Positions 1,001-62,626 of a stretch of DNA of 64,000 bases are shown here, piece by piece (the stretch's first letter is position 1; the number at the start of each line of letters is the position of its first letter). Source of the stretch: Escherichia phage 232Ecol030PP; sequence record PP355090.1. One strand, written 5' to 3'. The translations under genes were made by a program, and so were the position numbers. Below the pieces are notes generated by a model. That model was not told the origin of the DNA and ran no database searches. It was given only the letters and a program-made list of their open reading frames with translations.

Positions 1001-1456
1001 TTAAAAGAGGCTGTTCATTATTCGGTAAAGTGAAGGACCCATCACATATTGCCACTGAGTACGAGGAATAAGAGCAAAAGCATCCATCTCTGGAATCATA
1101 ACGCCATCTTTATTTTCAAAATAAGACTCGCAATGGCAATTTCTAAACATCTCATGCTCTACTGGAATCGTATAATAAAATAACTGTAAGTCTTTATTAC
1201 TAGAATATTTAAATACACCTAGGTCTTCTAGAAGGTCTGGATTATAATTGCTAAAACCGGTCTCTTCTAAGCATTCTCTTTTTGCAGCTTCCAGTGCATT
1301 CAAATCAGAACTTTCTACGCGGCCCTTTGGAATATCCCAGCGATGTGCCATCATTCCAGGCTTACGAGAACCAGTAACCCGACCCATAAATAAATCTTTA
1401 TCTTCTGTCATAAAGATAATACCAGCTGATAGTGTTTTCATTTTAATTTCCTGCAT
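1001..1456 (-). CDS. nudE: Nudix hydrolase
   Basis: 151 aa; Nudix box GRVESSDLNALEAAKRECLEETGF; position downstream of e as in T4 e.1. Confidence 0.9.
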   Translation of the reverse strand: MQEIKMKTLSAGIIFMTEDKDLFMGRVTGSRKPGMMAHRWDIPKGRVESSDLNALEAAKRECLEETGFSNYNPDLLEDLGVFKYSSNKDLQLFYYTIPVEHEMFRNCHCESYFENKDGVMIPEMDAFALIPRTQWQYVMGPSLYRIMNSLF

Positions 1457-1926
1457 TCAGTGATAAAGTTATTTAAATTTTGAGTATATTTCTTTTCATC
1501 AAAAATCTTTTGTTGTCTGCGTAAACGCCATGGCATTTCAATGAACATACGCCATATTCCTGATAATACTGCTGCTGTAAAAATATTAACAAGTATAGTT
1601 AAAAGAACCCAATCTCCTATTCTGTCCATTGGATTTTTTATAAAAAAGTAAAATACGAACGATGATATAGGAAGACTAATGATATACCACAGAAGAACCT
1701 TCTTATCTGTGAACCAATCAGCATTCGTTAACTTAGCGCGACCGTTTTGAATACATACGAACTTATCATCTGTTACAGTAAATGGCTTAGCTGCTTGATA
1801 TCCCATTCTAAACTCCCTAATCAACAAATTTTTCATATCTTCGGAACAACCATTCCAGTCAACTCTATCAACTGAAATGCCATCGTCCCCATCATCTAAA
1901 TCATACCAGCGAGTTTTTAAAATCAT
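1438..1926 (-). CDS. Hypothetical membrane protein (e.2-like position)
   Basis: 162 aa ORF with hydrophobic segments (LLWYIISLPISSFVFYFF, LLTILVNIFTAAVLSGIW); co-oriented with flanking genes. Confidence 0.6.
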   Translation of the reverse strand: MILKTRWYDLDDGDDGISVDRVDWNGCSEDMKNLLIREFRMGYQAAKPFTVTDDKFVCIQNGRAKLTNADWFTDKKVLLWYIISLPISSFVFYFFIKNPMDRIGDWVLLTILVNIFTAAVLSGIWRMFIEMPWRLRRQQKIFDEKKYTQNLNNFITECRKLK

Positions 1927-2285
1927 TTAATTTTCCTACAATCACTCACAAACTCTTCCATTGATTCTTTTTCAATATAAGACATATAGCTATTATATTC
2001 CTTTAATTGTATTTTGTAATCCTTTTTTCTTTGCCAATTTATTTTAAAATTATCATAATGAAAATATAACATGGTACCAAAGAATGAAAATAATGAAATC
2101 GCTATAGTAAAACGAAGTTCACTCCAAACCTCTGTTATAATTACTGTGCCGTCGATATTTAAAATAAAACAGTCAATTAACAATCCAATAAGACTACCCG
2201 CAAGAGCTGTAAATACTGATACAGCAAGAATTAATAGTGCCTCTGGAAACGAATATTTGACTTTATTTAGTTTTGGCTTTTGCAT
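1923..2285 (-). CDS. Hypothetical small membrane protein
   Basis: 120 aa; hydrophobic stretch ALLILAVSVFTALAGSLIGLLIDCFIL; 4-nt overlap with upstream gene. Confidence 0.6.
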   Translation of the reverse strand: MQKPKLNKVKYSFPEALLILAVSVFTALAGSLIGLLIDCFILNIDGTVIITEVWSELRFTIAISLFSFFGTMLYFHYDNFKINWQRKKDYKIQLKEYNSYMSYIEKESMEEFVSDCRKIK

Positions 2286-2680
2286 CGTGATTCCTTAACA
2301 AATTTCATAATTTCATCAAATTCATACATATCTAGCTTAAGCTGGTGTTCCTTTTTAATCTTTTTACACTGAGCTTTCCAATCACGTACACGTTTACGAT
2401 AATGTCTTCCTTGATACCAGTATCCTACCCAATTTACGGGTACTAATAAAAGTGGAACTATTAATGGAAGAATTAGCATTAACACAAGTATTTCGCCAGA
2501 ATCAATATCAGTCATAACATCTAAAACACCTCCAATAATCAATAGAATTACAAATGATATGAGTATAACAGGACCTATTAACACATCAGTAGAAATTATC
2601 TGACGCTTTGGTTCATACTTCACAGGTTTACTTGGAAGGTATAGTGATGGTTTTGACATATTCTCTACATTCCTTAACAA
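2267..2680 (-). CDS. Hypothetical small membrane protein
   Basis: 137 aa; two hydrophobic helices (VLIGPVILISFVILLIIGGVL, LVLMLILPLIVPLLLVPV); start may be at an internal Met. Confidence 0.55.
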   Translation of the reverse strand: MLRNVENMSKPSLYLPSKPVKYEPKRQIISTDVLIGPVILISFVILLIIGGVLDVMTDIDSGEILVLMLILPLIVPLLLVPVNWVGYWYQGRHYRKRVRDWKAQCKKIKKEHQLKLDMYEFDEIMKFVKESRCKSQN

Positions 2681-3242
2681 ATTTTTCTAGTAATAAATCA
2701 CTTTCAAAATTGGGATTTTCTACAAATTTATCAAAAAGATCATCAACAATAGTTAAGATATTCTTTTTACTAAGAATACGTTTATTTTCATGCTTCGTTT
2801 CAGAATCAACTATAAGAGTAAAGAAATATTTCTTGCCCTGAAATTTTACAGTAGTATCAATATAAAATAAATTTGACTTTTGTAAATTACGTTTAAACCA
2901 TGCGTCACTTAAACTATAAACACCGAGATAATCAAAATCGTCGTTTAAATAACAAACCGTCCATTCAGGAGAAATGAAATCAGTAAATTCAACATCAAAA
3001 TCACACGTCAATGAATGAATTGATTCAATACTGTTAATGAGTATTCCAGGACGTATTAAAGACTTTTTACCTCTAGAAAATCTTCCGGAAAGGCTTTCAT
3101 CAGTTTCATATGAAGACCCCCAATAGTAATTACGTCCTTCTGCCATGCGTTTAAGAGCATTTAGTAATTGGTCTGGAACATCAACCTGTCTTTGGAACTC
3201 TTCAAACATTGAATTGAAATCACTTTGCATTTTCATTTTCAT
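2628..3242 (-). CDS. Hypothetical protein
   Basis: 204 aa ORF, co-oriented, tight spacing. Confidence 0.6.
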   Translation of the reverse strand: MKMKMQSDFNSMFEEFQRQVDVPDQLLNALKRMAEGRNYYWGSSYETDESLSGRFSRGKKSLIRPGILINSIESIHSLTCDFDVEFTDFISPEWTVCYLNDDFDYLGVYSLSDAWFKRNLQKSNLFYIDTTVKFQGKKYFFTLIVDSETKHENKRILSKKNILTIVDDLFDKFVENPNFESDLLLEKFVKECREYVKTITIPSK

Positions 3243-3283
3243 TCCTATTTACTCCAAGTATAAGGGGCCGAAACCCCTTATCA

Positions 3284-53248: not shown

Positions 53249-54343
53249 ATGGCAATTGTTAAAGAAATAACTGCTGATTTAATTAAAAAGTCCGGTGAAA
53301 CAATTTCAGCCGGACAGAGTACTAAATCAGAAGTAGGAACTAAAACATACACAGCCCAGTTTCCAACTGGGCGTGCTAGTGGTAATGACACTACAGGGGA
53401 CTTCCAGGTAACAGATCTATATAAGAATGGATTATTATTTACTGCATACAATATGTCATCTAGGGATTCTGGAAGTCTTAGAACGATGAGATCTAACTAC
53501 TCTTCTTCATCTTCGAGTATTTTACGTACAGCCAGAAACACTATCAGTAATACAGTATCAAAACTATCAAATGGACTAATATCAGATAATAATTCAGGAA
53601 CAATAAGTAAAGTTCCTGTTGCAAATATTCTTTTACCTAGATCTAAATCTGACGTCGATACGTCATCACATAGATTTAATGATGTTCAAGATAGTCTTAT
53701 TACAAAAGGTGGAGGTACTGCTACTGGTGTGCTAAGCAATATGGCTTCAACCGCAGTATTTGGAGCGCTGGAAAGTATAACACAAGGTATAATGGCTGAT
53801 AATAATGAACAGATTTATACGACAGCCAGAAGCATGTACGGCGGTGCTGAAAATAGAACTAAAGTGTTCACTTGGGATTTGACTCCGCGCTCAACAGAAG
53901 ATTTAATGGCTATTATTAATATCTATCAGTATTTTAACTATTTTTCTTACGGTGAAACTGGTAAATCTCAATATGCTGCTGAAATAAAAGGATATTTAGA
54001 TGAGTGGTACCGTTCTACTTTTATTGAGCCGTTAACTCCAGAAGATGCAGTTAAAAATAAGACGTTATTTGAGAAAATGACATCGAGTTTAACTAACGTT
54101 CTTGTAGTTTCAAACCCGACAATTTGGATGGTGAAAAACTTTGGTGCAACATCTAAGTTTGATGGAAAAACGGAAATATTCGGTCCATGTCAAATCCAGA
54201 GTATCAGATTTGATAAAACACCTAATGGTAACTTTAACGGATTAGCTATTGCTCCAAACCTCCCTAGTACATTTACTCTCGAGATTACTATGAGAGAAAT
54301 TATCACGTTAAACCGTGCTTCTTTATATGCGGGGACTTTTTAA
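53249..54343 (+). CDS. 48: Baseplate tail-tube cap gp48
   Basis: 364 aa. Confidence 0.93.
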   Translation: MAIVKEITADLIKKSGETISAGQSTKSEVGTKTYTAQFPTGRASGNDTTGDFQVTDLYKNGLLFTAYNMSSRDSGSLRTMRSNYSSSSSSILRTARNTISNTVSKLSNGLISDNNSGTISKVPVANILLPRSKSDVDTSSHRFNDVQDSLITKGGGTATGVLSNMASTAVFGALESITQGIMADNNEQIYTTARSMYGGAENRTKVFTWDLTPRSTEDLMAIINIYQYFNYFSYGETGKSQYAAEIKGYLDEWYRSTFIEPLTPEDAVKNKTLFEKMTSSLTNVLVVSNPTIWMVKNFGATSKFDGKTEIFGPCQIQSIRFDKTPNGNFNGLAIAPNLPSTFTLEITMREIITLNRASLYAGTF

Positions 54344-55308
54344 TGTATTCTTTAGAGGAATTTAATAATCAAGCAATAAACGCAGATTTCCAACGTAATA
54401 ATATGTTTAGCTGCGTTTTTGCTACAACTCCATCAACTAAAAGCTCTTCGTTGATAAGTTCAATTAGCAACTTTTCTTATAATAACTTGGGCCTAAATTC
54501 AGATTGGTTAGGATTAACTCAAGGCGATATTAATCAGGGAATTACCACGCTAATTACTGCTGGCACACAAAAACTGATAAGAAAATCAGGGGTTAGTAAA
54601 TATCTTATTGGTGCCATGAGTCAACGTACAGTTCAAAGTTTATTGGGTTCATTTACAGTTGGTACATATTTAATTGACTTCTTTAATATGGCGTATAATT
54701 CATCTGGATTGATGATATACTCTGTAAAAATGCCAGAGAATAGATTATCCTATGAAACTGACTGGAACTATAATTCTCCTAATATTCGTATAACTGGGAG
54801 AGAATTAGACCCTTTGGTTATTTCATTCAGAATGGATTCAGAAGCTTGTAACTATCGTGCAATGCAAGACTGGGTTAACGCTGTTCAAGACCCAGTAACT
54901 GGATTGCGTGCTTTGCCGCAAGATGTCGAGGCAGATATTCAGGTTAATCTTCATTCTCGCAATGGATTACCACATACTGCGGTGATGTTCACTGGATGCA
55001 TTCCAGTGTCCGTAAGCGCTCCTGAGTTATCATATGATGGAGATAACCAAATAACTACATTTGATGTTACTTTTGCGTATAGAGTGATGCAGGCTGGAGC
55101 AGTTGATAGACAAGCTGCCATTGAATGGCTTGAATCTGCTACTATAAATGGTATTCAAAGCGTTCTCGGAAATAGTGGAGGTGTTACTGGACTATCTAAT
55201 TCGCTTTCACGACTCAGTAGATTAGGGGGAACTGCAGGAAGCATTTCAAATATTAATACTATGACAGGAATTGTCAATTCGCAGAGTAAAATATTAGGAG
55301 CAATATAA
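54343..55308 (+). CDS. 54: Baseplate tail-tube initiator gp54
   Basis: 321 aa. Confidence 0.93.
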   Translation: MYSLEEFNNQAINADFQRNNMFSCVFATTPSTKSSSLISSISNFSYNNLGLNSDWLGLTQGDINQGITTLITAGTQKLIRKSGVSKYLIGAMSQRTVQSLLGSFTVGTYLIDFFNMAYNSSGLMIYSVKMPENRLSYETDWNYNSPNIRITGRELDPLVISFRMDSEACNYRAMQDWVNAVQDPVTGLRALPQDVEADIQVNLHSRNGLPHTAVMFTGCIPVSVSAPELSYDGDNQITTFDVTFAYRVMQAGAVDRQAAIEWLESATINGIQSVLGNSGGVTGLSNSLSRLSRLGGTAGSISNINTMTGIVNSQSKILGAI

Positions 55309-55310
55309 CA

Positions 55311-55341
55311 ATGGGGACCTTTCGGTCCCCATATTTTTATT
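55311..55341 (+). terminator. Rho-independent terminator after gene 54
   Basis: TGGGGACC-TTTCG-GGTCCCCA followed by TATTTTTATTT. Confidence 0.7.
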
Positions 55342-55627
55342 TACGGAATGAAATGAAAGCAGAAACTGAAGCAACTAAACTGTCTTCAATATAAACTTCA
55401 ATTTTTACCGGAGCTTCTGACTCAAATTTACCTGTTACTACACCCTGAAAAATACTTTCAGTCTGTTCTGGCTTTGAAAAATTTTCAGAAGGAAAAATTC
55501 CGAACTTTTTATCTGTTCCAAAAATTTTGATAAATTCATCGTAAACTGCTTCATTAAAAGCATTATCAGCAGGAATAACGCCTTCAACTACAAGTTCTTG
55601 ACCTAAAAAGCGCAAAGAAGATTTCAT
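55337..55627 (-). CDS. Hypothetical protein downstream of the alt paralogs
   Basis: 96 aa ORF. Confidence 0.65.
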   Translation of the reverse strand: MKSSLRFLGQELVVEGVIPADNAFNEAVYDEFIKIFGTDKKFGIFPSENFSKPEQTESIFQGVVTGKFESEAPVKIEVYIEDSLVASVSAFISFRK

Positions 55628-55687
55628 TTTGTGTTCCTCATGTTATGTCAGTAAGACTACTATAACACAACACGAGGGACTTGTAAA

Positions 55688-57745
55688 CTACATCTTGAAC
55701 TTTTTAGACATTCCGTTGATGTTAACCAAAGAAGCTAAGATTTGAGAAACTTCGTTTTCCTCTTCTTTTGATTCTTCTACAAGGAATTGATTAAATCCAG
55801 CCATTGGACGAACTTCACCAGTTTCCATCAAATGATCGCCATCATATACTGATTCTTCTAATTGCTCAGAAGGAGGAACGATTGTACCTTCGATTAGATA
55901 CTTGTTATAAGCAGTTTCTTTCATAAAGTAAGTACTTACTTTATTAATCTTCAGTAAAATTCCACGCGGTAGAATAACTTCAGCTTCTGATGGAAATCCT
56001 GATAAATGACCCGGAACGATAACTTTGATTCGCTCAGCTCCTTTAATTACCATACCCACGCTAGTTTCAGCATCTTCATTAGCATATGTAGAATGACTAC
56101 CCATATGCATCAAATCTTCTGCATCAACGGAACCTTCTCCTTCACCAGAAAATACTGCACCGGAATCATCTAGAGCCATATAGTTTTTACCATGCTCGCC
56201 GAAGATATTTGGTTTAAGCGATGTAGATACGAAGTTCTTGAAATAGAACATTTTGTTTTCAATGTTATGACGCAAAGTTTTAAAGGTAACTTCTTGTCCG
56301 CGATAAAGCGTAGTTCCTGGAGGAAGAACTGAACCTTTAGCGAATGCAGAATCCAACGTCTCGATGTGCTTAATAGCTCGTTCCATATATTCTTCACGGG
56401 TAGAATCTGGTTTACCCAAAAGGAACGAGTTCATTTCAACATATGAATCTGCACAATAATCTTCAATTACATCAGATTCGGCCTGAGTCAGTCCTTTTGG
56501 AGTTACTTCAGTGCTTGCGTATTCATATGCCTTGGCAGCAGATTCATTAATCAATTTATAAATGCCATTCATGACAAATTGAATAATAGCTGTCTTTTCA
56601 TCTGGCGTAGCTTTAGAACCTTTAACTAAATCATTAATAATTTTCTTAATAACATCAAAGCTATTAGAAATATTAATGTCAGCAAGATCGCTTAAAATTT
56701 TATCAGTTTTATAATCAAAGAATTCTTTATTCTTTAAATATTCTTGAGAACCTTGATATGTTATATCGCTCTGCAACTTGATAGATGGATCACGTAAACG
56801 TGCATGGGCCAATGCAATATGATTTCGGAAGCTTTCTAGTTCATAATCGTTAGATTTAAAACGAGAAGCACTTCTCATACCACCGATAGCTCCTTTGCTG
56901 AAGTTTGAACCAATCTGGATAACGCCAGAGTTCATCGGACCTTCTGCTTTATATACCGGAACTTTAGATTCAAACTCTTGATATTTCTTAGCAGCGAAGC
57001 TATCACCCTGAAGCGAAGCATCAACAGTAGAATATTGAGCTTGTGCTGCTAATCGACGACTAATTTTAGTTTTCTGAATAACAGCTTGGTCCGTGCGCTT
57101 ATCATTTTCTAAAGCAATAGAAGCAGCAACAGCAACAGCTTTAGGAACAGCATTTCCTGTTTTAACGTCTACATAAACATCACCGACCTTTGATTCAACT
57201 TTTGTGAATAACTCAGTTGAAATAGGAGGTACACCTGGAATGTCTTCTAAATTGGCATTTTTACGGTAAACCATAATATATGCATACTTTTTATCATAGT
57301 CCCAGATTTCCTTTAAAAGAACATATCGACCTGCTCCTTTAGTACGTACTAAACGGTCAGCAATAACTTGCATTTGACGAGCAGCGCCATTTGTTTTACT
57401 TTTTAGTACGCGGAATAAGCATGCATCAATTTTATACTGTTTCATTGTTTGAAGAGCAGTATCAAAAACAGCGTTAATGACGCCAATTGGATTTCCACCC
57501 AAGTTTCTAAGTTTAACCAGTGATAATTTCTCGTTGACACCTATCATTACGATATGCATCATTTTATCGCCCGGCTTAATGTTTTTATTCGTATCACCAC
57601 CAGAGGTGTATGTACAAAATCTAAATCCAGGAAGCACGCTTTCTTCGCCGGCTTGAATAGCAAAAATTTGTGGTATTTTATGCTTAGGATTTAAGTTAAC
57701 AACCGGCGCCGAAGCGCCGTCAAATAATTCTGTAATAAGTTCCAT
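55688..57745 (-). CDS. Alt-like ADP-ribosyltransferase paralog
   Basis: 685 aa; N-terminus MELITELFD...NLNPK.KIPQIF; C-terminal R-S-E triad elements LYRGQ, FVSTSL, AEVILPRG. Confidence 0.8.
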   Translation of the reverse strand: MELITELFDGASAPVVNLNPKHKIPQIFAIQAGEESVLPGFRFCTYTSGGDTNKNIKPGDKMMHIVMIGVNEKLSLVKLRNLGGNPIGVINAVFDTALQTMKQYKIDACLFRVLKSKTNGAARQMQVIADRLVRTKGAGRYVLLKEIWDYDKKYAYIMVYRKNANLEDIPGVPPISTELFTKVESKVGDVYVDVKTGNAVPKAVAVAASIALENDKRTDQAVIQKTKISRRLAAQAQYSTVDASLQGDSFAAKKYQEFESKVPVYKAEGPMNSGVIQIGSNFSKGAIGGMRSASRFKSNDYELESFRNHIALAHARLRDPSIKLQSDITYQGSQEYLKNKEFFDYKTDKILSDLADINISNSFDVIKKIINDLVKGSKATPDEKTAIIQFVMNGIYKLINESAAKAYEYASTEVTPKGLTQAESDVIEDYCADSYVEMNSFLLGKPDSTREEYMERAIKHIETLDSAFAKGSVLPPGTTLYRGQEVTFKTLRHNIENKMFYFKNFVSTSLKPNIFGEHGKNYMALDDSGAVFSGEGEGSVDAEDLMHMGSHSTYANEDAETSVGMVIKGAERIKVIVPGHLSGFPSEAEVILPRGILLKINKVSTYFMKETAYNKYLIEGTIVPPSEQLEESVYDGDHLMETGEVRPMAGFNQFLVEESKEEENEVSQILASLVNINGMSKKFKM

Positions 57746-57748
57746 GAT

Positions 57749-59797
57749 TTATCCTTGAACGAACTTGTAAGGCATGTTTGCAATATCTATACAAGACGCA
57801 ATAATTCCAAGAGATGATTCTACTTTCTGTTTAACATTTGATGAAACAAATGATGCAAAATCAACTCTGTCTTCTATATCACCTGTCATTGTAACTACTT
57901 CGCCGGTTTCCATTAGACGGTCACCGTCATAAATTACCGATTCGGTGAGTTCTTCTGTGGTCATAACTTCAGCTTGAATAAGCTTGTTGTTAGTTTTAAC
58001 TGTTCCATCATTGTAAGATGCATCAGTTATTTTATTAACTTTGACCATTAATCCACGTGGCAAAATAACTTCCATTTCATTTGAAGGCGCTAAACTTCCA
58101 CCGGGTAAAACAACATTGACTTTATCAGCCCCAGTAATAACCCATCCAATTCCGACTAAATTATCGCTAGAATTAACAAGCCCTTCATCATTTTTATCGA
58201 TAGAAATGTTTAGACGCTTTTCATCTGGTAAAACACCAACAGCTGAATCAGTCATCCAAGTACCAAAAATGTTTGGATATAATGATGTTGACACAAAATT
58301 TCTAAAATAAAAAACTCGATTTTTTACCAGTGCTTCATATATTGAAGGTAACATTCGTTGTGAACGATACAAAGTAATACCTTTTGGTAATCGTTCACCA
58401 TTTTTAAAGGCAGAATCTAAATTATCAATAGCTTTTTCTATATCAGATGCTGTCAAAATACTTGTACGCTCATCTGGATTATATAATCCCAAAAGAGCGT
58501 TATTTATGTCTACATATCCTGAACTTACGTATTCACGAATTCCGCGTTTTTGTGCCGGTGTGTATTTAGATGAATCTTTATTTTCGACTATAGGATGTAG
58601 TGACCATCCAGCGGTAAGAGCATATCCACGCAATTCTCTTCGAATAATCTTTGTTTTTATTGCATTCCAAGAATTTTGTACTAACTCATTCGCAGCATCT
58701 TGATTTAAATGCGAATGCTTGTTAATGTTTCTTTCTAACCAAGCACCTTTATATTTTTCTAAAGTATCATCAACTATAGAAGCAATAGTTTCTAAAGTTT
58801 TTATTGAAGTAATAGATTCTTTTCGTAATCTTTCTAAAGCTTTATTTTTTATTTCTGCATTAACATCAGATTCTTTATCTTCAGGAATTATAGAAGCTTC
58901 TCTGAATGCCATTCCAGCTGTAACACTATTAAGAGCATTCTCTAATGCAAATCCTGAAGTAGAAATAACAGTTAATTCGTTAGCATCGGAAATTAAAGGC
59001 GCATCAGCGGGTTTATTTAATTCTGCTGCTGAAGCCTCAAATTTTTGAAACATCGGTGTTTCAAATCTAGAAGATTCCAATGATTGACTTTGCGCAATTG
59101 CTCTACGGGAAATTTTAACTTTAACGATTACAGCTTGGTCAGAACGTTTATCATTTTCTTGCGCAATAGATGCTGCAATTGCCTCATTTTTAGTTACTTG
59201 AGCTCCAGTATCTTTATTGATATAAACATCACCGACCTTCGATTCAACTTTAGTAAAGAGCTCAGTACTAATTTCCGGAACTCCCGGAATGTCTTCTAGT
59301 GATACATTTTTGCGATGTATAAGAATATATGCATACTTTTTATCGTAATCCCAGAGTTCCTTAAGAAGGACGTATCTGCCACCTGAACGACTACGGATAA
59401 GTCTATCAGCAATAACTTGAATTTGTCGAGCTTGACCAGCGGTTTTAGACTTAAGAATACGAAGCATACAGGCATCAATTTTATACTGACGCATTGTTTG
59501 CATCGCAACAGTAAAAACTGAATTGATATAATTAATTGGGCTTGGACCAAGACCTTTTAATTTAGCAATTGAACCTTTAGCAGTTAATGTAAAAGGAACA
59601 ATATGCATCATTTTATCGCCCATCTTTAAATCGCGATTAGTATCACCTCCAGATGTATAGGTACATAAACGAAAGCCTGGTTGTTCAATTGCATCATCAA
59701 CATGAACTGAAAAAATTTGCGGTATTTTCTTCTTTGGATTTAAGTTTGTAATCGGAAGAGTAGTATCTTCGTCAAATAATTCTGTAATAAGTTCCAT
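57749..59797 (-). CDS. alt: ADP-ribosyltransferase Alt (packaged, injected)
   Basis: ORF track 57749..59800 (MMELITELFDEDTTL...); start placed at the second Met to match the MELITELFD N-terminus; ART motifs LYRSQ, FVSTSL, MEVILPRG. Confidence 0.85.
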   Translation of the reverse strand: MELITELFDEDTTLPITNLNPKKKIPQIFSVHVDDAIEQPGFRLCTYTSGGDTNRDLKMGDKMMHIVPFTLTAKGSIAKLKGLGPSPINYINSVFTVAMQTMRQYKIDACMLRILKSKTAGQARQIQVIADRLIRSRSGGRYVLLKELWDYDKKYAYILIHRKNVSLEDIPGVPEISTELFTKVESKVGDVYINKDTGAQVTKNEAIAASIAQENDKRSDQAVIVKVKISRRAIAQSQSLESSRFETPMFQKFEASAAELNKPADAPLISDANELTVISTSGFALENALNSVTAGMAFREASIIPEDKESDVNAEIKNKALERLRKESITSIKTLETIASIVDDTLEKYKGAWLERNINKHSHLNQDAANELVQNSWNAIKTKIIRRELRGYALTAGWSLHPIVENKDSSKYTPAQKRGIREYVSSGYVDINNALLGLYNPDERTSILTASDIEKAIDNLDSAFKNGERLPKGITLYRSQRMLPSIYEALVKNRVFYFRNFVSTSLYPNIFGTWMTDSAVGVLPDEKRLNISIDKNDEGLVNSSDNLVGIGWVITGADKVNVVLPGGSLAPSNEMEVILPRGLMVKVNKITDASYNDGTVKTNNKLIQAEVMTTEELTESVIYDGDRLMETGEVVTMTGDIEDRVDFASFVSSNVKQKVESSLGIIASCIDIANMPYKFVQG

Positions 59798-59820
59798 CAT
59801 AGCCTCTCTAGTGTTTATTC

Positions 59821-59828
59821 TATTTATA
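59821..59828 (-). promoter_or_regulatory. Late promoter TATAAATA (minus strand) for alt
   Basis: plus tatttata 24 nt upstream of the alt ATG. Confidence 0.55.
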
Positions 59829-59833
59829 AAATT

Positions 59834-59851
59834 AAAGGCCCGAAGGCCTTT
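59834..59851 (-). terminator. Terminator hairpin between the small ORF and alt
   Basis: palindrome AAAGGCCCGAAGGCCTTT with flanking T-rich sequence. Confidence 0.55.
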
Positions 59852-60038
59852 AGTAATCTAGTGGTAAGAGAGTACGGTATATTTCAAACTTTGGACCTTT
59901 TTCATAGGCATCAAATGTTTCTGTGAATTTATTATAAGCGTATGCATCTACAAATTCGAGAATGACTTGTGATACAGAAGTAGAAACATCTCCACCTTCT
60001 TTTTGAGCAATGACAATTGTTTCTAAGTAAGCTTTCAT
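59850..60038 (-). CDS. Hypothetical small protein
   Basis: 62 aa ORF overlapping the gene 30 stop by 4 nt. Confidence 0.55.
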   Translation of the reverse strand: MKAYLETIVIAQKEGGDVSTSVSQVILEFVDAYAYNKFTETFDAYEKGPKFEIYRTLLPLDY

Positions 60039-61498
60039 AAACCAGTTACCTCATGAAAATCACCAAATACATCCTCGAATGTATTAGCTTTAGTTTTATC
60101 TTCACGCAAACGAATCGCAATCGGAAGAAATAATTTAACGTAATCAGTGCGGCCATCAGATTTTAACCAACCGTTGCATTCGCACTCTAGAATTTTTCCA
60201 ATATAATAATTTTGGTTTTCCATAATGCGAGTACGGTCAAGTTCATGCGATTTTACACCGGCTTTATCTTTTAAGCCTGAACCAGCATTTACTTTAATTT
60301 TTCCACACTCTGACTCAAGAATAAATCCACCTGCTTTAGTAGGGTCTTTACGGTGAGGATAAATTCCTACAATTTTTAAATCAACATCAATTACTTCTTT
60401 AAATTTATAGAGATTTTTTGAACGAGCATTTTCCCATAATCCATCGATATTTTTGAGAATAATACCTTCAAGACCTTGGTCAATATACTTTTTATAAATT
60501 ACCTTGGCTTCGTCTAGGTTATTTACTACCTGGTTTTCAATTAAAATTACTTTATCATAGCCTGATGTCATTTGTTCTAGTTTAGAAAAACGTACATCAT
60601 ATTTCAAACGAAATGCAGGAAGACCGTATATTTCTACCAACGGGACATAATCCCAGACCTGAAACTTCATGCATTGAGCTTCTTTTTCAGAAATGGTTCC
60701 CTTTAAAGATTTATTGGCGATGCCATTAGATGCAGTACGTGATTCAGCTACTTCGGCGAATTCTTTAGCTTTACTAATTTCAGGATAAGCATCAAAAAGA
60801 AAATCTAGGCCTTCTGGCTCCTTTTCAACTTGCTCATGGTATACCAATTCGCCATCAATTAACACGCCTTCTGGATGAATCTGGCGGGCTTCAGCGGTCA
60901 TTTTGATTAATTCTTCCTTAAGAAGATCTAATCCTAGATATTCATTACCAGCTCGTGATAAAAGACGAACGTCATCTAATTCATCACCTCTGACTTCGGC
61001 AAAGCACCGAGCTCCATCAGCTTTTAACTGGGCAAAGGCTGGAAATTTGATATTCTTATTAATGCCTTTTTCATCATAAGAACTTGCGAGCATTTGAGGT
61101 TGTTCAGGAATTAAACCTGGCCAAACTTTGTTTGCAATAGATACTGAAGCACCACATTCAAGGTCTCGCATCATCACTCGACGCAAAACTTCAACATCAT
61201 CTTTTTTACCATCAGTGATATATCCAGTTAATTCCTCAATTGCAGCATTTCCAGTCAATTTCCGAGTAGCTAACGTGAATTCAATGAAGTCAAGCATATC
61301 GGTAATAGTCAGCATTCCAAAACTCTGGGTAGCAATACCCGGTTTAGGCCATTTCTTGATATAATACTGTAACCCACGAGAATAAGTCAGACGATATACT
61401 CGTTTAAGCAATTCATTATCTTTATTCTTTTCAAGAATTGCTTGCTTCTGCTTAGTTGAACCAATAGATGCTATTTCGTTCAGAATTTTAAGAATCAT
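60035..61498 (-). CDS. 30: ATP-dependent DNA ligase
   Basis: 487 aa; adenylation motif KADGAR; T4 ligase length. Confidence 0.96.
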   Translation of the reverse strand: MILKILNEIASIGSTKQKQAILEKNKDNELLKRVYRLTYSRGLQYYIKKWPKPGIATQSFGMLTITDMLDFIEFTLATRKLTGNAAIEELTGYITDGKKDDVEVLRRVMMRDLECGASVSIANKVWPGLIPEQPQMLASSYDEKGINKNIKFPAFAQLKADGARCFAEVRGDELDDVRLLSRAGNEYLGLDLLKEELIKMTAEARQIHPEGVLIDGELVYHEQVEKEPEGLDFLFDAYPEISKAKEFAEVAESRTASNGIANKSLKGTISEKEAQCMKFQVWDYVPLVEIYGLPAFRLKYDVRFSKLEQMTSGYDKVILIENQVVNNLDEAKVIYKKYIDQGLEGIILKNIDGLWENARSKNLYKFKEVIDVDLKIVGIYPHRKDPTKAGGFILESECGKIKVNAGSGLKDKAGVKSHELDRTRIMENQNYYIGKILECECNGWLKSDGRTDYVKLFLPIAIRLREDKTKANTFEDVFGDFHEVTGL

Positions 61499-61764
61499 TG
61501 TTCATCCTTTAGAGTTTGGTTTACAGCTCTATTATAAATCAATTCATCATTAAGCTCAGTCAAAGACCTGTGGTACGTGGTTCTAACTTTATTTCCTTGC
61601 ATCCAGTGCTTGACGTAAATGAAACCTTGCTCTACACATTTTTTAAAAATTCGTTCGTCTTTTTGAGCTCGGAATTCTGGATTGCATCTAAAAAATTGAT
61701 TTACGTGACCGTAATCACGTGTAGTATTACCTTCATTTTCATAAATAGTGTGAACAACAAACAT
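61495..61764 (-). CDS. Hypothetical protein
   Basis: 89 aa ORF, 4-nt overlap with gene 30. Confidence 0.65.
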   Translation of the reverse strand: MFVVHTIYENEGNTTRDYGHVNQFFRCNPEFRAQKDERIFKKCVEQGFIYVKHWMQGNKVRTTYHRSLTELNDELIYNRAVNQTLKDEQ

Positions 61765-61976
61765 TAGAATGCTCCTTGGAAAATATTATCACCACTAGTA
61801 AATCTATTAAAATATCCTGCATCACCAGGCTTAGTATAACTCCACGTATGGAATGGATTCATATGATACGGGTGTGTATAATATGGATTATATGGATGTG
61901 TATAATATGGATTATACGGATTAAATCCAGGAGTTCTCCAGGTAGTGTTCCAACGAAAAGAATCGTTTTTAACCAT
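61764..61976 (-). CDS. Hypothetical Tyr/Pro-rich small protein with internal 8-aa tandem repeat
   Basis: 70 aa; YNPYYTHP repeated twice, encoded by a 24-bp tandem repeat. Confidence 0.55.
   Translation of the reverse strand: MVKNDSFRWNTTWRTPGFNPYNPYYTHPYNPYYTHPYHMNPFHTWSYTKPGDAGYFNRFTSGDNIFQGAF
61871..61918. repeat. 24-bp tandem repeat x2 (22/24 identical) inside the small ORF
   Basis: ggtgtgtataatatggattatatg / gatgtgtataatatggattatacg. Confidence 0.8.
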
Positions 61977-61993
61977 CTTCTCAATTACATCTT

Positions 61994-62626
61994 TTATAGC
62001 TTTTTCACTATCAAAACTTTCTTTATTTTCCTTCGGTGAAAAAGCTTATTTTCTACATCATTCCATGTATAAACTCGCTGCGCAGTTTTTGGAATATTGT
62101 CACGCTCTCCTCGAGCCATCCAATAAACAGGAACATTTAATATTTCACTCGCATGATCGCAGTGGTGGGCGAGATCGTCAATATAACAAATTACATTATA
62201 TTTCTCTTTTGCCTTTTTGAATAACTCTTCTTTTGAAGAATCATGACCACACATCATTACTTCTGAGAAGGCACCAGGAAAAAGAGCATTCAAATTAAAT
62301 TGACGATTCAGCAGAGCGTCAATAGAATCACCCAATGCTGTAACAGCTACAAAATTATAATCTTCTTTTAGTTTGTTAATTACGCACAGGGCATCTTTAT
62401 ATGGAGACAGGTAACGAATAAAATCTGATCGATTGTATTTTTCAATTAGCTTGACACCAAGTTCTTCATCACAATTAAAGAGTTTACCCGGAGAAATAAA
62501 TTTCTCATCTTGGATCATTTTTAAAATATGTTCTAACGGAAGATTATATTTCTGAGCAAAATAAGGAAGACCTGATTGCCAGCTTAAACATACTCCATCA
62601 ATATCAGTTAAAATAGTAGGCTTCAT
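61994..62626 (-). CDS. HAD-superfamily hydrolase-like protein
   Basis: 210 aa; N-terminal LTDIDGV (DxDG motif I) and later CYIDDL aspartates. Confidence 0.6.
   Translation of the reverse strand: MKPTILTDIDGVCLSWQSGLPYFAQKYNLPLEHILKMIQDEKFISPGKLFNCDEELGVKLIEKYNRSDFIRYLSPYKDALCVINKLKEDYNFVAVTALGDSIDALLNRQFNLNALFPGAFSEVMMCGHDSSKEELFKKAKEKYNVICYIDDLAHHCDHASEILNVPVYWMARGERDNIPKTAQRVYTWNDVENKLFHRRKIKKVLIVKKL

Follow-up and report, generated by a model that had tools for sequence, protein, structure and literature searches.

Does a phage with two alt genes side by side carry one ADP-ribosyltransferase (ART) twice, or two enzymes that do different work? The question is raised by Escherichia phage 232Ecol030PP (PP355090.1), of which we analysed a stretch of 64,000 nucleotides (nt), hereafter the window. 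Two neighbouring minus-strand genes in it encode Alt-family ADP-ribosyltransferases: alt1 (57749..59797, 682 amino acids [aa]), the ortholog of T4 alt, and alt2 (55688..57745, 685 aa), an intact full-length paralog. The two-gene alt locus is the majority and normal state in Tequatrovirus, already known and annotated, and T4 is the degenerate exception. Taken as a whole, it is likely that the window comes from a Tequatrovirus (T4-like phage) with its alt locus in the common two-gene form, and that both genes are co-transcribed late and their proteins packaged through a shared N-terminal domain, processed and injected, to act on distinct host targets.

Two full-length Alt proteins

The initial annotation, made from the letters of the window, had placed two tandem, co-oriented Alt-type paralogs at 55688..59800, and both minus-strand open reading frames (ORFs) lie exactly there. 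Aligned by BLASTP, the two proteins have 297 of 717 positions identical (41%, E 1e-158), far beyond chance. The family phrog_802 (“Alt-like RNA polymerase ADP-ribosyltransferase”) spans residues 1–681 of alt1 (5e-262) and 1–685 of alt2 (6e-256). PF03496 (ADPrib_exo_Tox) scored 122.6 bits in alt1 (1.7e-35) and 72.0 bits in alt2 (5.5e-20), the gathering threshold being 23.4 bits. These matches bear out the Alt-family identity proposed for both. PF26846 (Tevenvirinae_ADPRT) was precomputed on P0001, the 99%-identical cluster representative, and on every full-length homolog listed. No NCBIfam family was matched by alt1 or alt2.

The proteins have a common layout of four parts, given here in alt2 numbering with minus-strand coordinates. 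The N-terminal alpha/beta domain (residues 1–238; 57032..57745) opens with the prohead-protease motif MELITE↓LFD (the arrow marks the presumed cut) and is presumably a module for targeting to the capsid core. It is followed by an all-helical central region (residues 239–412; 56510..57031), by the ART catalytic domain (residues 413–625; 55871..56509), recognized from Pfam, invariant alignment columns and Foldseek matches, and by a C-terminal tail (residues 626–685 plus stop; 55688..55870) with a YDGDHLME↓TGE motif, a candidate C-terminal propeptide. Identity between alt1 and alt2 is 68% in the N-domain, 14% in the central region, the most diverged part, 33% in the ART domain and 42% in the C-terminal 60 residues. 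The N-terminal ~240 residues had initially been called near-identical; their strong conservation stands, near-identity does not. The motifs quoted from them (MELITELFD, KIDAC, GRYVLLKE.WDYDKKYAYI) are present in both proteins, and the divergence of the centres was correctly seen.

The C-terminal ART motifs that had been read by eye were also found in both proteins, each of which exceeds the PF03496 threshold. In alt1 the catalytic residues are R478, S503-T-S505 and E574-M-E576, and in alt2 R482, S507-T-S509 and E587-A-E589, in both cases in the correct order. The alignment, which was to show whether one copy had lost catalytic residues, revealed no such loss in either. None of the 30 aligned Alt homologs departs from the catalytic Arg, the two Ser or the two Glu, and at least 90% have the central Thr (T508); R, S-T-S and E-x-E are also kept across 12 curated Alt proteins. 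The E-x-E motif aligns with GEYEV of CdtA. The stretch from S-T-S to E-x-E is ~20% identical between alt1 and alt2, and differs in length.

An AlphaFold2 model, made for alt2 only (predicted local distance difference test [pLDDT] 75, predicted template modelling score 0.66), has three parts: an alpha/beta N-domain (~11–240), an all-helical middle (250–415, with helices from 250 to 414) and an ART domain (420–625). The latter matched Vis, Certhrax, CDTa, C3, Vip2 and iota toxin in Foldseek (E 8e-8 to 1e-4), with target template modelling scores of 0.6–0.67 against Vis, C3, CDTa and Vip2, signifying an ART fold in the model. In a sequence search of the PDB, Alt1 had marginal matches to CdtA only and Alt2 had none at E<0.01, and by this search there is no solved Alt structure. 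Together, these results show that both proteins are full-length Alt-family members with a common four-part layout and all catalytic residues retained.

The second gene across Tequatrovirus and its wreck in T4

Whether T4 itself has an equivalent of alt2 had been left in doubt. T4 Alt is 97.8% identical to alt1 (667/682 residues). No intact paralog is present in T4: at the position of alt2 there are only the ORFs alt.-1 (61 aa; NP_049810) and alt.-2 (67 aa; NP_049809), with 94% DNA identity to the first ~340 nt of alt2. Their families, phrog_23015 and phrog_15247, match alt2 more strongly than alt1. Aligning T4 DNA to the window revealed two lesions relative to the intact alt2, the loss of 1 nt from an A-run and a deletion of 1699 bp. 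The ends of the latter are 9-bp direct repeats, CTAAAAAGT, found in the window on the minus strand at 57398..57406 (upstream copy, alt2 codon ~114) and 55699..55707 (downstream copy, codon ~680). The T4 GenBank note describes the remnant as a duplication of “the first part of gene alt”. Judged from this alignment, alt.-1 and alt.-2 are evidently the wreck of a deleted full-length alt2 and not a partial duplication.

The intact arrangement is common. The two-gene region was covered to at least 80% in 287 of the 532 matching phage records, and 401 phage records have the alt2-specific residues 241–685 with an identity of 95% or higher. Of 499 records, 91 have the T4-type deletion junction. Two alt genes are annotated in RB51, the second being RB51ORF198, and likewise in SH7 (gp188); in the BASEL phages Bas35 (bas35_0031) and Bas44 (bas44_0032) the gene is labelled “ADP-ribosyltransferase Alt2”. 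All four are the same gene as alt2 of the window (97–99% protein identity), in the same two-gene arrangement and without substantive difference. These annotations were made by similarity only (“No experimental evidence” in SH7), and Alt2 is unmentioned in the main text of the BASEL paper. The feature is already known, because it is annotated in RB51, SH7 and the BASEL phages and because alt duplications in T4-like phages were reported by Nolan et al. 2006 (PMC1524935). As the ordinary arrangement in Tequatrovirus, the two-gene find itself is of small importance. What gives it weight is that the reference phage, T4, is the degenerate case, so that studies of injected ADP-ribosyltransferases have mostly passed over a second, well-conserved enzyme.

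Some Tequatrovirus records (e.g., PP925844 Elenatom, MZ234031, MK327929) had three matching places or three “Alt-like” annotations at the locus or near it. These could be due to a third copy or to a split gene.

Selection on alt2 was analysed with four orthologs (window, FL34, SH7 and RB51). Synonymous divergence (dS) was 0.18–0.25, and the ratio of nonsynonymous to synonymous divergence (dN/dS) was 0.03–0.06 over the full length, 0.01–0.025 in the N-domain and 0.025–0.04 in the ART domain. The gene is under strong purifying selection as a protein-coding gene along its whole length. Between alt1 and alt2, synonymous sites are saturated in every region, and the duplication is old. Since this includes the N-domain (dS ~1.3), the likeness of the two N-domains is due to selective constraint, and recent gene conversion as its source is ruled out. 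For the central region the alt1/alt2 comparison gave a dN/dS above 1, a value left uninterpreted because of the unreliable alignment and the saturated sites.

Exchange of parts at the alt locus

The upstream gene also varies within Tequatrovirus. Two alt1 alleles were recognized, a T4-type of 682 aa and an RB51-type of 697 aa, the latter at 1184..3277 in the locus sequences of both RB51 (L004) and FL34 (L002). At the DNA level the alleles are 97% identical in the N-domain and 95% in the C-terminal tail, versus 54% in the middle and 68% in the ART domain; at the protein level the middle is 34% and the ART domain 65% identical. The pattern reads as cassette replacement between conserved flanks.

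Dhakavirus KIT01 has three tandem alt genes (locus L005, 93..6356), of 695, 681 and 707 aa. This array (KIT01_203-205; see also Alt of JS10) lies at the same locus, with three copies compared with two here. KIT01_c falls with alt2 (middle 46%, ART domain 59%, tail 66%), and in the ART domain KIT01_a falls with alt1 (56%). The KIT01 ART domains pair with the Tequatrovirus genes by position. The N-domains, in contrast, group by genus and not by position, with 66–87% identity within KIT01 and 42–46% to Tequatrovirus.

Single-crossover hybrids, with the N-terminus of alt1 and the body of alt2, were found with five switch points, at residues ~54–80, 102–110, 147–158, 174–192 and 218–224. Every crossover sits in one of the longest identical nucleotide runs of the paralogs (12–21 nt). 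In Escherichia phage ECML-134 (NC_025449; L008, 1602..3662) the hybrid is the sole alt gene at the locus, as it is in a second locus sequence (L007, 5001..7055). A third hybrid (L006, 5001..7061) lies at the end of its sequence, which stops just past the gene. The L007 hybrid locus is also matched, as one unbroken piece and with a single match per record, in phages PST and SCS4.

The hybrids fit recombination between the tandem paralogs, with deletion of ~2 kb. For those on Logan and ENA contigs an assembly artefact is possible, since the crossovers coincide with the longest identical runs. Against an artefact speak the cultured genome of ECML-134, with its single confirmed hybrid, and the uninterrupted matches of SCS4 and PST. 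From the hybrid genes it follows that the N-domains are functionally interchangeable in nature, and that some phages carry only an Alt2-type catalytic body.

We propose tentatively, giving it somewhat less than even chances, that the alt locus is a polymorphic, capsid-delivered effector system, in which a conserved chassis carries exchangeable cassettes, each tuned to another target or defence system of the host, and Alt2 is a distinct effector, for anti-defence or takeover, and not a second RNA polymerase modifier. Packaging, processing and ejection would be the task of the chassis, i.e., the 238-aa N-domain and the C-terminal tail. The cassette, i.e., the central helical region and the ART domain, would be swapped by recombination and multiplied in tandem, giving loci with one, two or three copies and hybrids.

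Probable synthesis, packaging and targets of Alt2

A T4 late-promoter box, TATAAATA, was found at 59821..59828 (minus strand), ~20 nt upstream of the alt1 start, in agreement with synthesis at the time of head assembly. Matches to this box numbered 26 in the window, versus 10 expected. A terminator-like hairpin (59833..59852, minus strand) lies between the alt.1 homolog and this promoter. At the alt1–alt2 junction (57746..57762, minus strand) the alt1 stop codon TAA is followed by 3 nt and the alt2 ATG, with AAGGA 7 nt upstream of the ATG. Scanning the junction gave no convincing terminator and no promoter between the genes. Because of the 3-nt gap and the lack of a terminator, alt2 is probably co-transcribed with alt1 from the late promoter upstream of alt1, and it would be translated from its own Shine-Dalgarno sequence.

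The next strong hairpin after the alt genes is a bidirectional terminator-like one at 55311..55332, between alt.-3 and gene 54. The two genes converge there. The hairpin has a perfect, GC-rich stem of 9 bp and T-runs on either strand, and is a candidate bidirectional terminator; in T4 its loop and stem sequence is inverted with respect to the window. Directly after the alt2 stop and upstream of alt.-3 there is a site resembling a T4 early promoter (55659..55687, minus strand; GTTTACA, 17 nt, TATAGT, with TG). It may allow alt.-3 to be transcribed early and separately from the alt genes.

Four minus-strand ORFs lie between the DNA ligase gene (60035..61498) and the tail-tube gene 54 (54343..55308). 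Beside alt1 and alt2 these are the upstream neighbour, a homolog of alt.1 (59850..60038, 62 aa; Pfam Phage_blade PF24647, 1.9e-29), and the downstream neighbour, a homolog of alt.-3 (55337..55627, 96 aa; DUF5498 PF17602, 5.4e-64), both named after the T4 annotation. The order ligase, alt.1, alt1, alt2, alt.-3, gene 54 is that of T4, save for the intact alt2, and both alt genes occupy the Alt locus of Tevenvirinae, between gene 30/alt.1 and alt.-3/gene 54. Further away, what is a single gene in T4, gene 30.2 (278 aa), corresponds here to two ORFs (61764..62626, minus strand). The larger fragment (61994..62626, 210 aa) is identical to T4 gp30.2 in 195 of 209 residues (93%) and diverges after residue ~196; the C-terminus is a 70-aa ORF (61764..61976) bearing an additional NPYYTHPY direct repeat. 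The two are separated by a frameshift, from either a sequencing error or decay into a pseudogene.

Two in-frame start codons, ATGATG (59797..59802, minus strand), open alt1. The first, at 59800, adds one Met, for 683 aa. The second, at 59797, is the start in the T4 annotation (682 aa), and the spacing to the GAGG box favours it. The first fits the 7-residue Alt propeptide given in a review and the numbering of T4 Alt E577A. This variant is catalytically dead (PMC11404850), and we infer that E577 is the second Glu of the alt1 E-x-E when counted from the upstream Met.

T4 Alt is described in PMC9026906 as a prohead core protein of ~40 copies, cleaved by the gp21 protease at L/I-x-E sites at both termini, with removal of a 7-residue N-terminal propeptide. 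An N-terminal MELITE↓LFD and, near the C-terminus, YDGD.LME↓TGE are found in both window proteins. The glutamates of the motifs are invariant across homologs. In alt2, the 30-sequence alignment shows no variation at E641, G643 and E644, L639 is conserved in at least 90% of the sequences, and in the smaller comparison LMETGE is retained in 12 of 12 Alt proteins. Both motifs lie in low-confidence, probably disordered termini of the AlphaFold2 model (residues 629–663 have pLDDT <50). The L/I-x-E motif is short, and its presence is necessary and not sufficient for prohead-protease cleavage. By analogy with T4, we infer for Alt2 the same path as for Alt, from packaging and processing to injection. 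Both Alts would enter the prohead core via the shared N-terminal domain, be trimmed by gp21 at MELITE↓LFD and LME↓TGE, and then be ejected with the DNA.

NAD-dependent transfer of ADP-ribose to arginines of proteins is known for T4 Alt. T4 Alt ADP-ribosylates the RNA polymerase alpha subunit and other host proteins (PMC5512222). At 97.8% identity to T4 Alt, alt1 very likely does the same. For Alt2 the database name “RNA polymerase ADP-ribosyltransferase” is unverified, and we found no basis for it. In R-S-E transferases the E-x-E motif predicts arginine specificity. Given the E-x-E of Alt2, the 14% identity of the centre and the diverged region between S-T-S and E-x-E, the most economical reading of the sequences is that Alt2 acts on different host targets than Alt1. 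Each Alt would mono-ADP-ribosylate arginines on its own set of host proteins, as decided by the diverged helical region and the active-site loops. The “expanded or altered target range” suggested initially is therefore plausible, the central region and the ART loops being highly diverged.

T4 Alt was also reported to interfere with MazEF and to aid evasion of Mokosh type I, and this evasion was regained with T4 Alt and not with Bas37 Alt (bioRxiv 10.1101/2025.11.20.689424). The failure of Bas37 Alt to complement indicates that Alt sequence variants are not equivalent. Since T4 Alt aids evasion and a variant Alt is no substitute, the cassette diversity at the alt locus, Alt2 included, is a reasonable place to seek strain-specific anti-defence functions. 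As T4-type phages have lost alt2, the gene is dispensable in the laboratory. Most natural isolates nonetheless retain it, a pattern in line with a host-takeover or anti-defence effector that is more useful in some host strains than in others.

Several points weigh against a second Alt that is packaged and has targets of its own. The N-domain has no recognisable fold relative, and its packaging role rests on analogy and conservation. The literature gave no direct sign of Alt2 synthesis, packaging, processing or enzymatic activity, and in it we found no reported Alt2 substrate and nothing on virion proteomics or function of a second Alt paralog. For the C-terminal cut in T4 Alt, LME↓TGE is one candidate L/I-x-E site. 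Finally, alt2 is non-essential, no intact copy being present in T4 and 90 other records. The same facts can be read in other ways. If Alt2 were active and unpackaged, working only in the producing cell like ModA/ModB or as a late intracellular enzyme, the lack of any proteomic detection in virions in the literature would be expected, and ModA/ModB of T4 are examples of phage ARTs that work without being packaged (PMC5512222). This is unlikely, considering that the 238-aa N-domain is the part of Alt2 under the strongest constraint (dN/dS 0.01–0.025), that both protease motifs are kept and that the gene lies behind a late promoter. ModA/ModB have no N-domain of the Alt type. In addition, alt1-N/alt2-body hybrids occur with five crossover points, and in a cultured phage such a hybrid is the sole alt gene.

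The frameshifted, deleted remnant that is all T4 and the 90 other records have left of alt2 could also mean that Alt2 is a redundant duplicate heading for loss, with no distinct function, the more so as T4 alt itself is non-essential (PMC9026906). But a gene on its way out is hard to reconcile with a dN/dS of 0.03–0.06 over the full length at dS ~0.2 and an intact copy of at least 95% identity in 401 records. The paralogs are old, with saturated synonymous sites and a positional ortholog of the alt2-type ART domain in Dhakavirus KIT01 (59%), and some phages retain the alt2 body only. We consider redundancy quite improbable. Least credible is that Alt2 serves chiefly as a structural core or ejection protein, its ART activity being irrelevant. 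Besides its enzymatic role, Alt is credited with one as a component of the prohead core (PMC11404850, discussion; PMC9026906), but the invariant catalytic residues and the ART domain dN/dS of 0.025–0.04 make this very improbable for Alt2. What remains of interest is the substrates of Alt2 and the cassette-like evolution of the locus.

Among known systems the closest is T4 Alt itself (gpAlt, NP_049811). It is the ortholog of alt1, with the same length, position between alt.1 and gene 54, and late-promoter context. Alt2 resembles it in architecture, in catalytic residues, in the MELITE propeptide at the N-terminus and in the C-terminal LMETGE motif. The two differ in sequence, with 42% identity overall, 14% in the helical centre, and loops between S-T-S and E-x-E that are essentially unrelated. 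The bacterial ART toxins C3, Vis, CDTa, Vip2 and iota (PF03496) share with Alt the fold and the R, S-T-S, E-x-E active site, at ~15–20% sequence identity, but are secreted and are not virion proteins.

T4 ModA and ModB are single-domain enzymes of ~200 aa, without the Alt N-domain. Like Alt, they are phage ADP-ribosyltransferases of the R-S-E clade used for host takeover; unlike Alt, they are made after infection and not packaged (PMC5512222). The internal proteins IPI–III of T4 resemble what is proposed here for Alt, as they have a conserved targeting and processing element on variable, DNA-delivered cargo, cut by gp21 at L/I-x-E. Their targeting sequence is a peptide of 10–19 residues, whereas the conserved part of Alt, with a presumed targeting role, is a folded domain of 238 aa plus the C-terminal tail.

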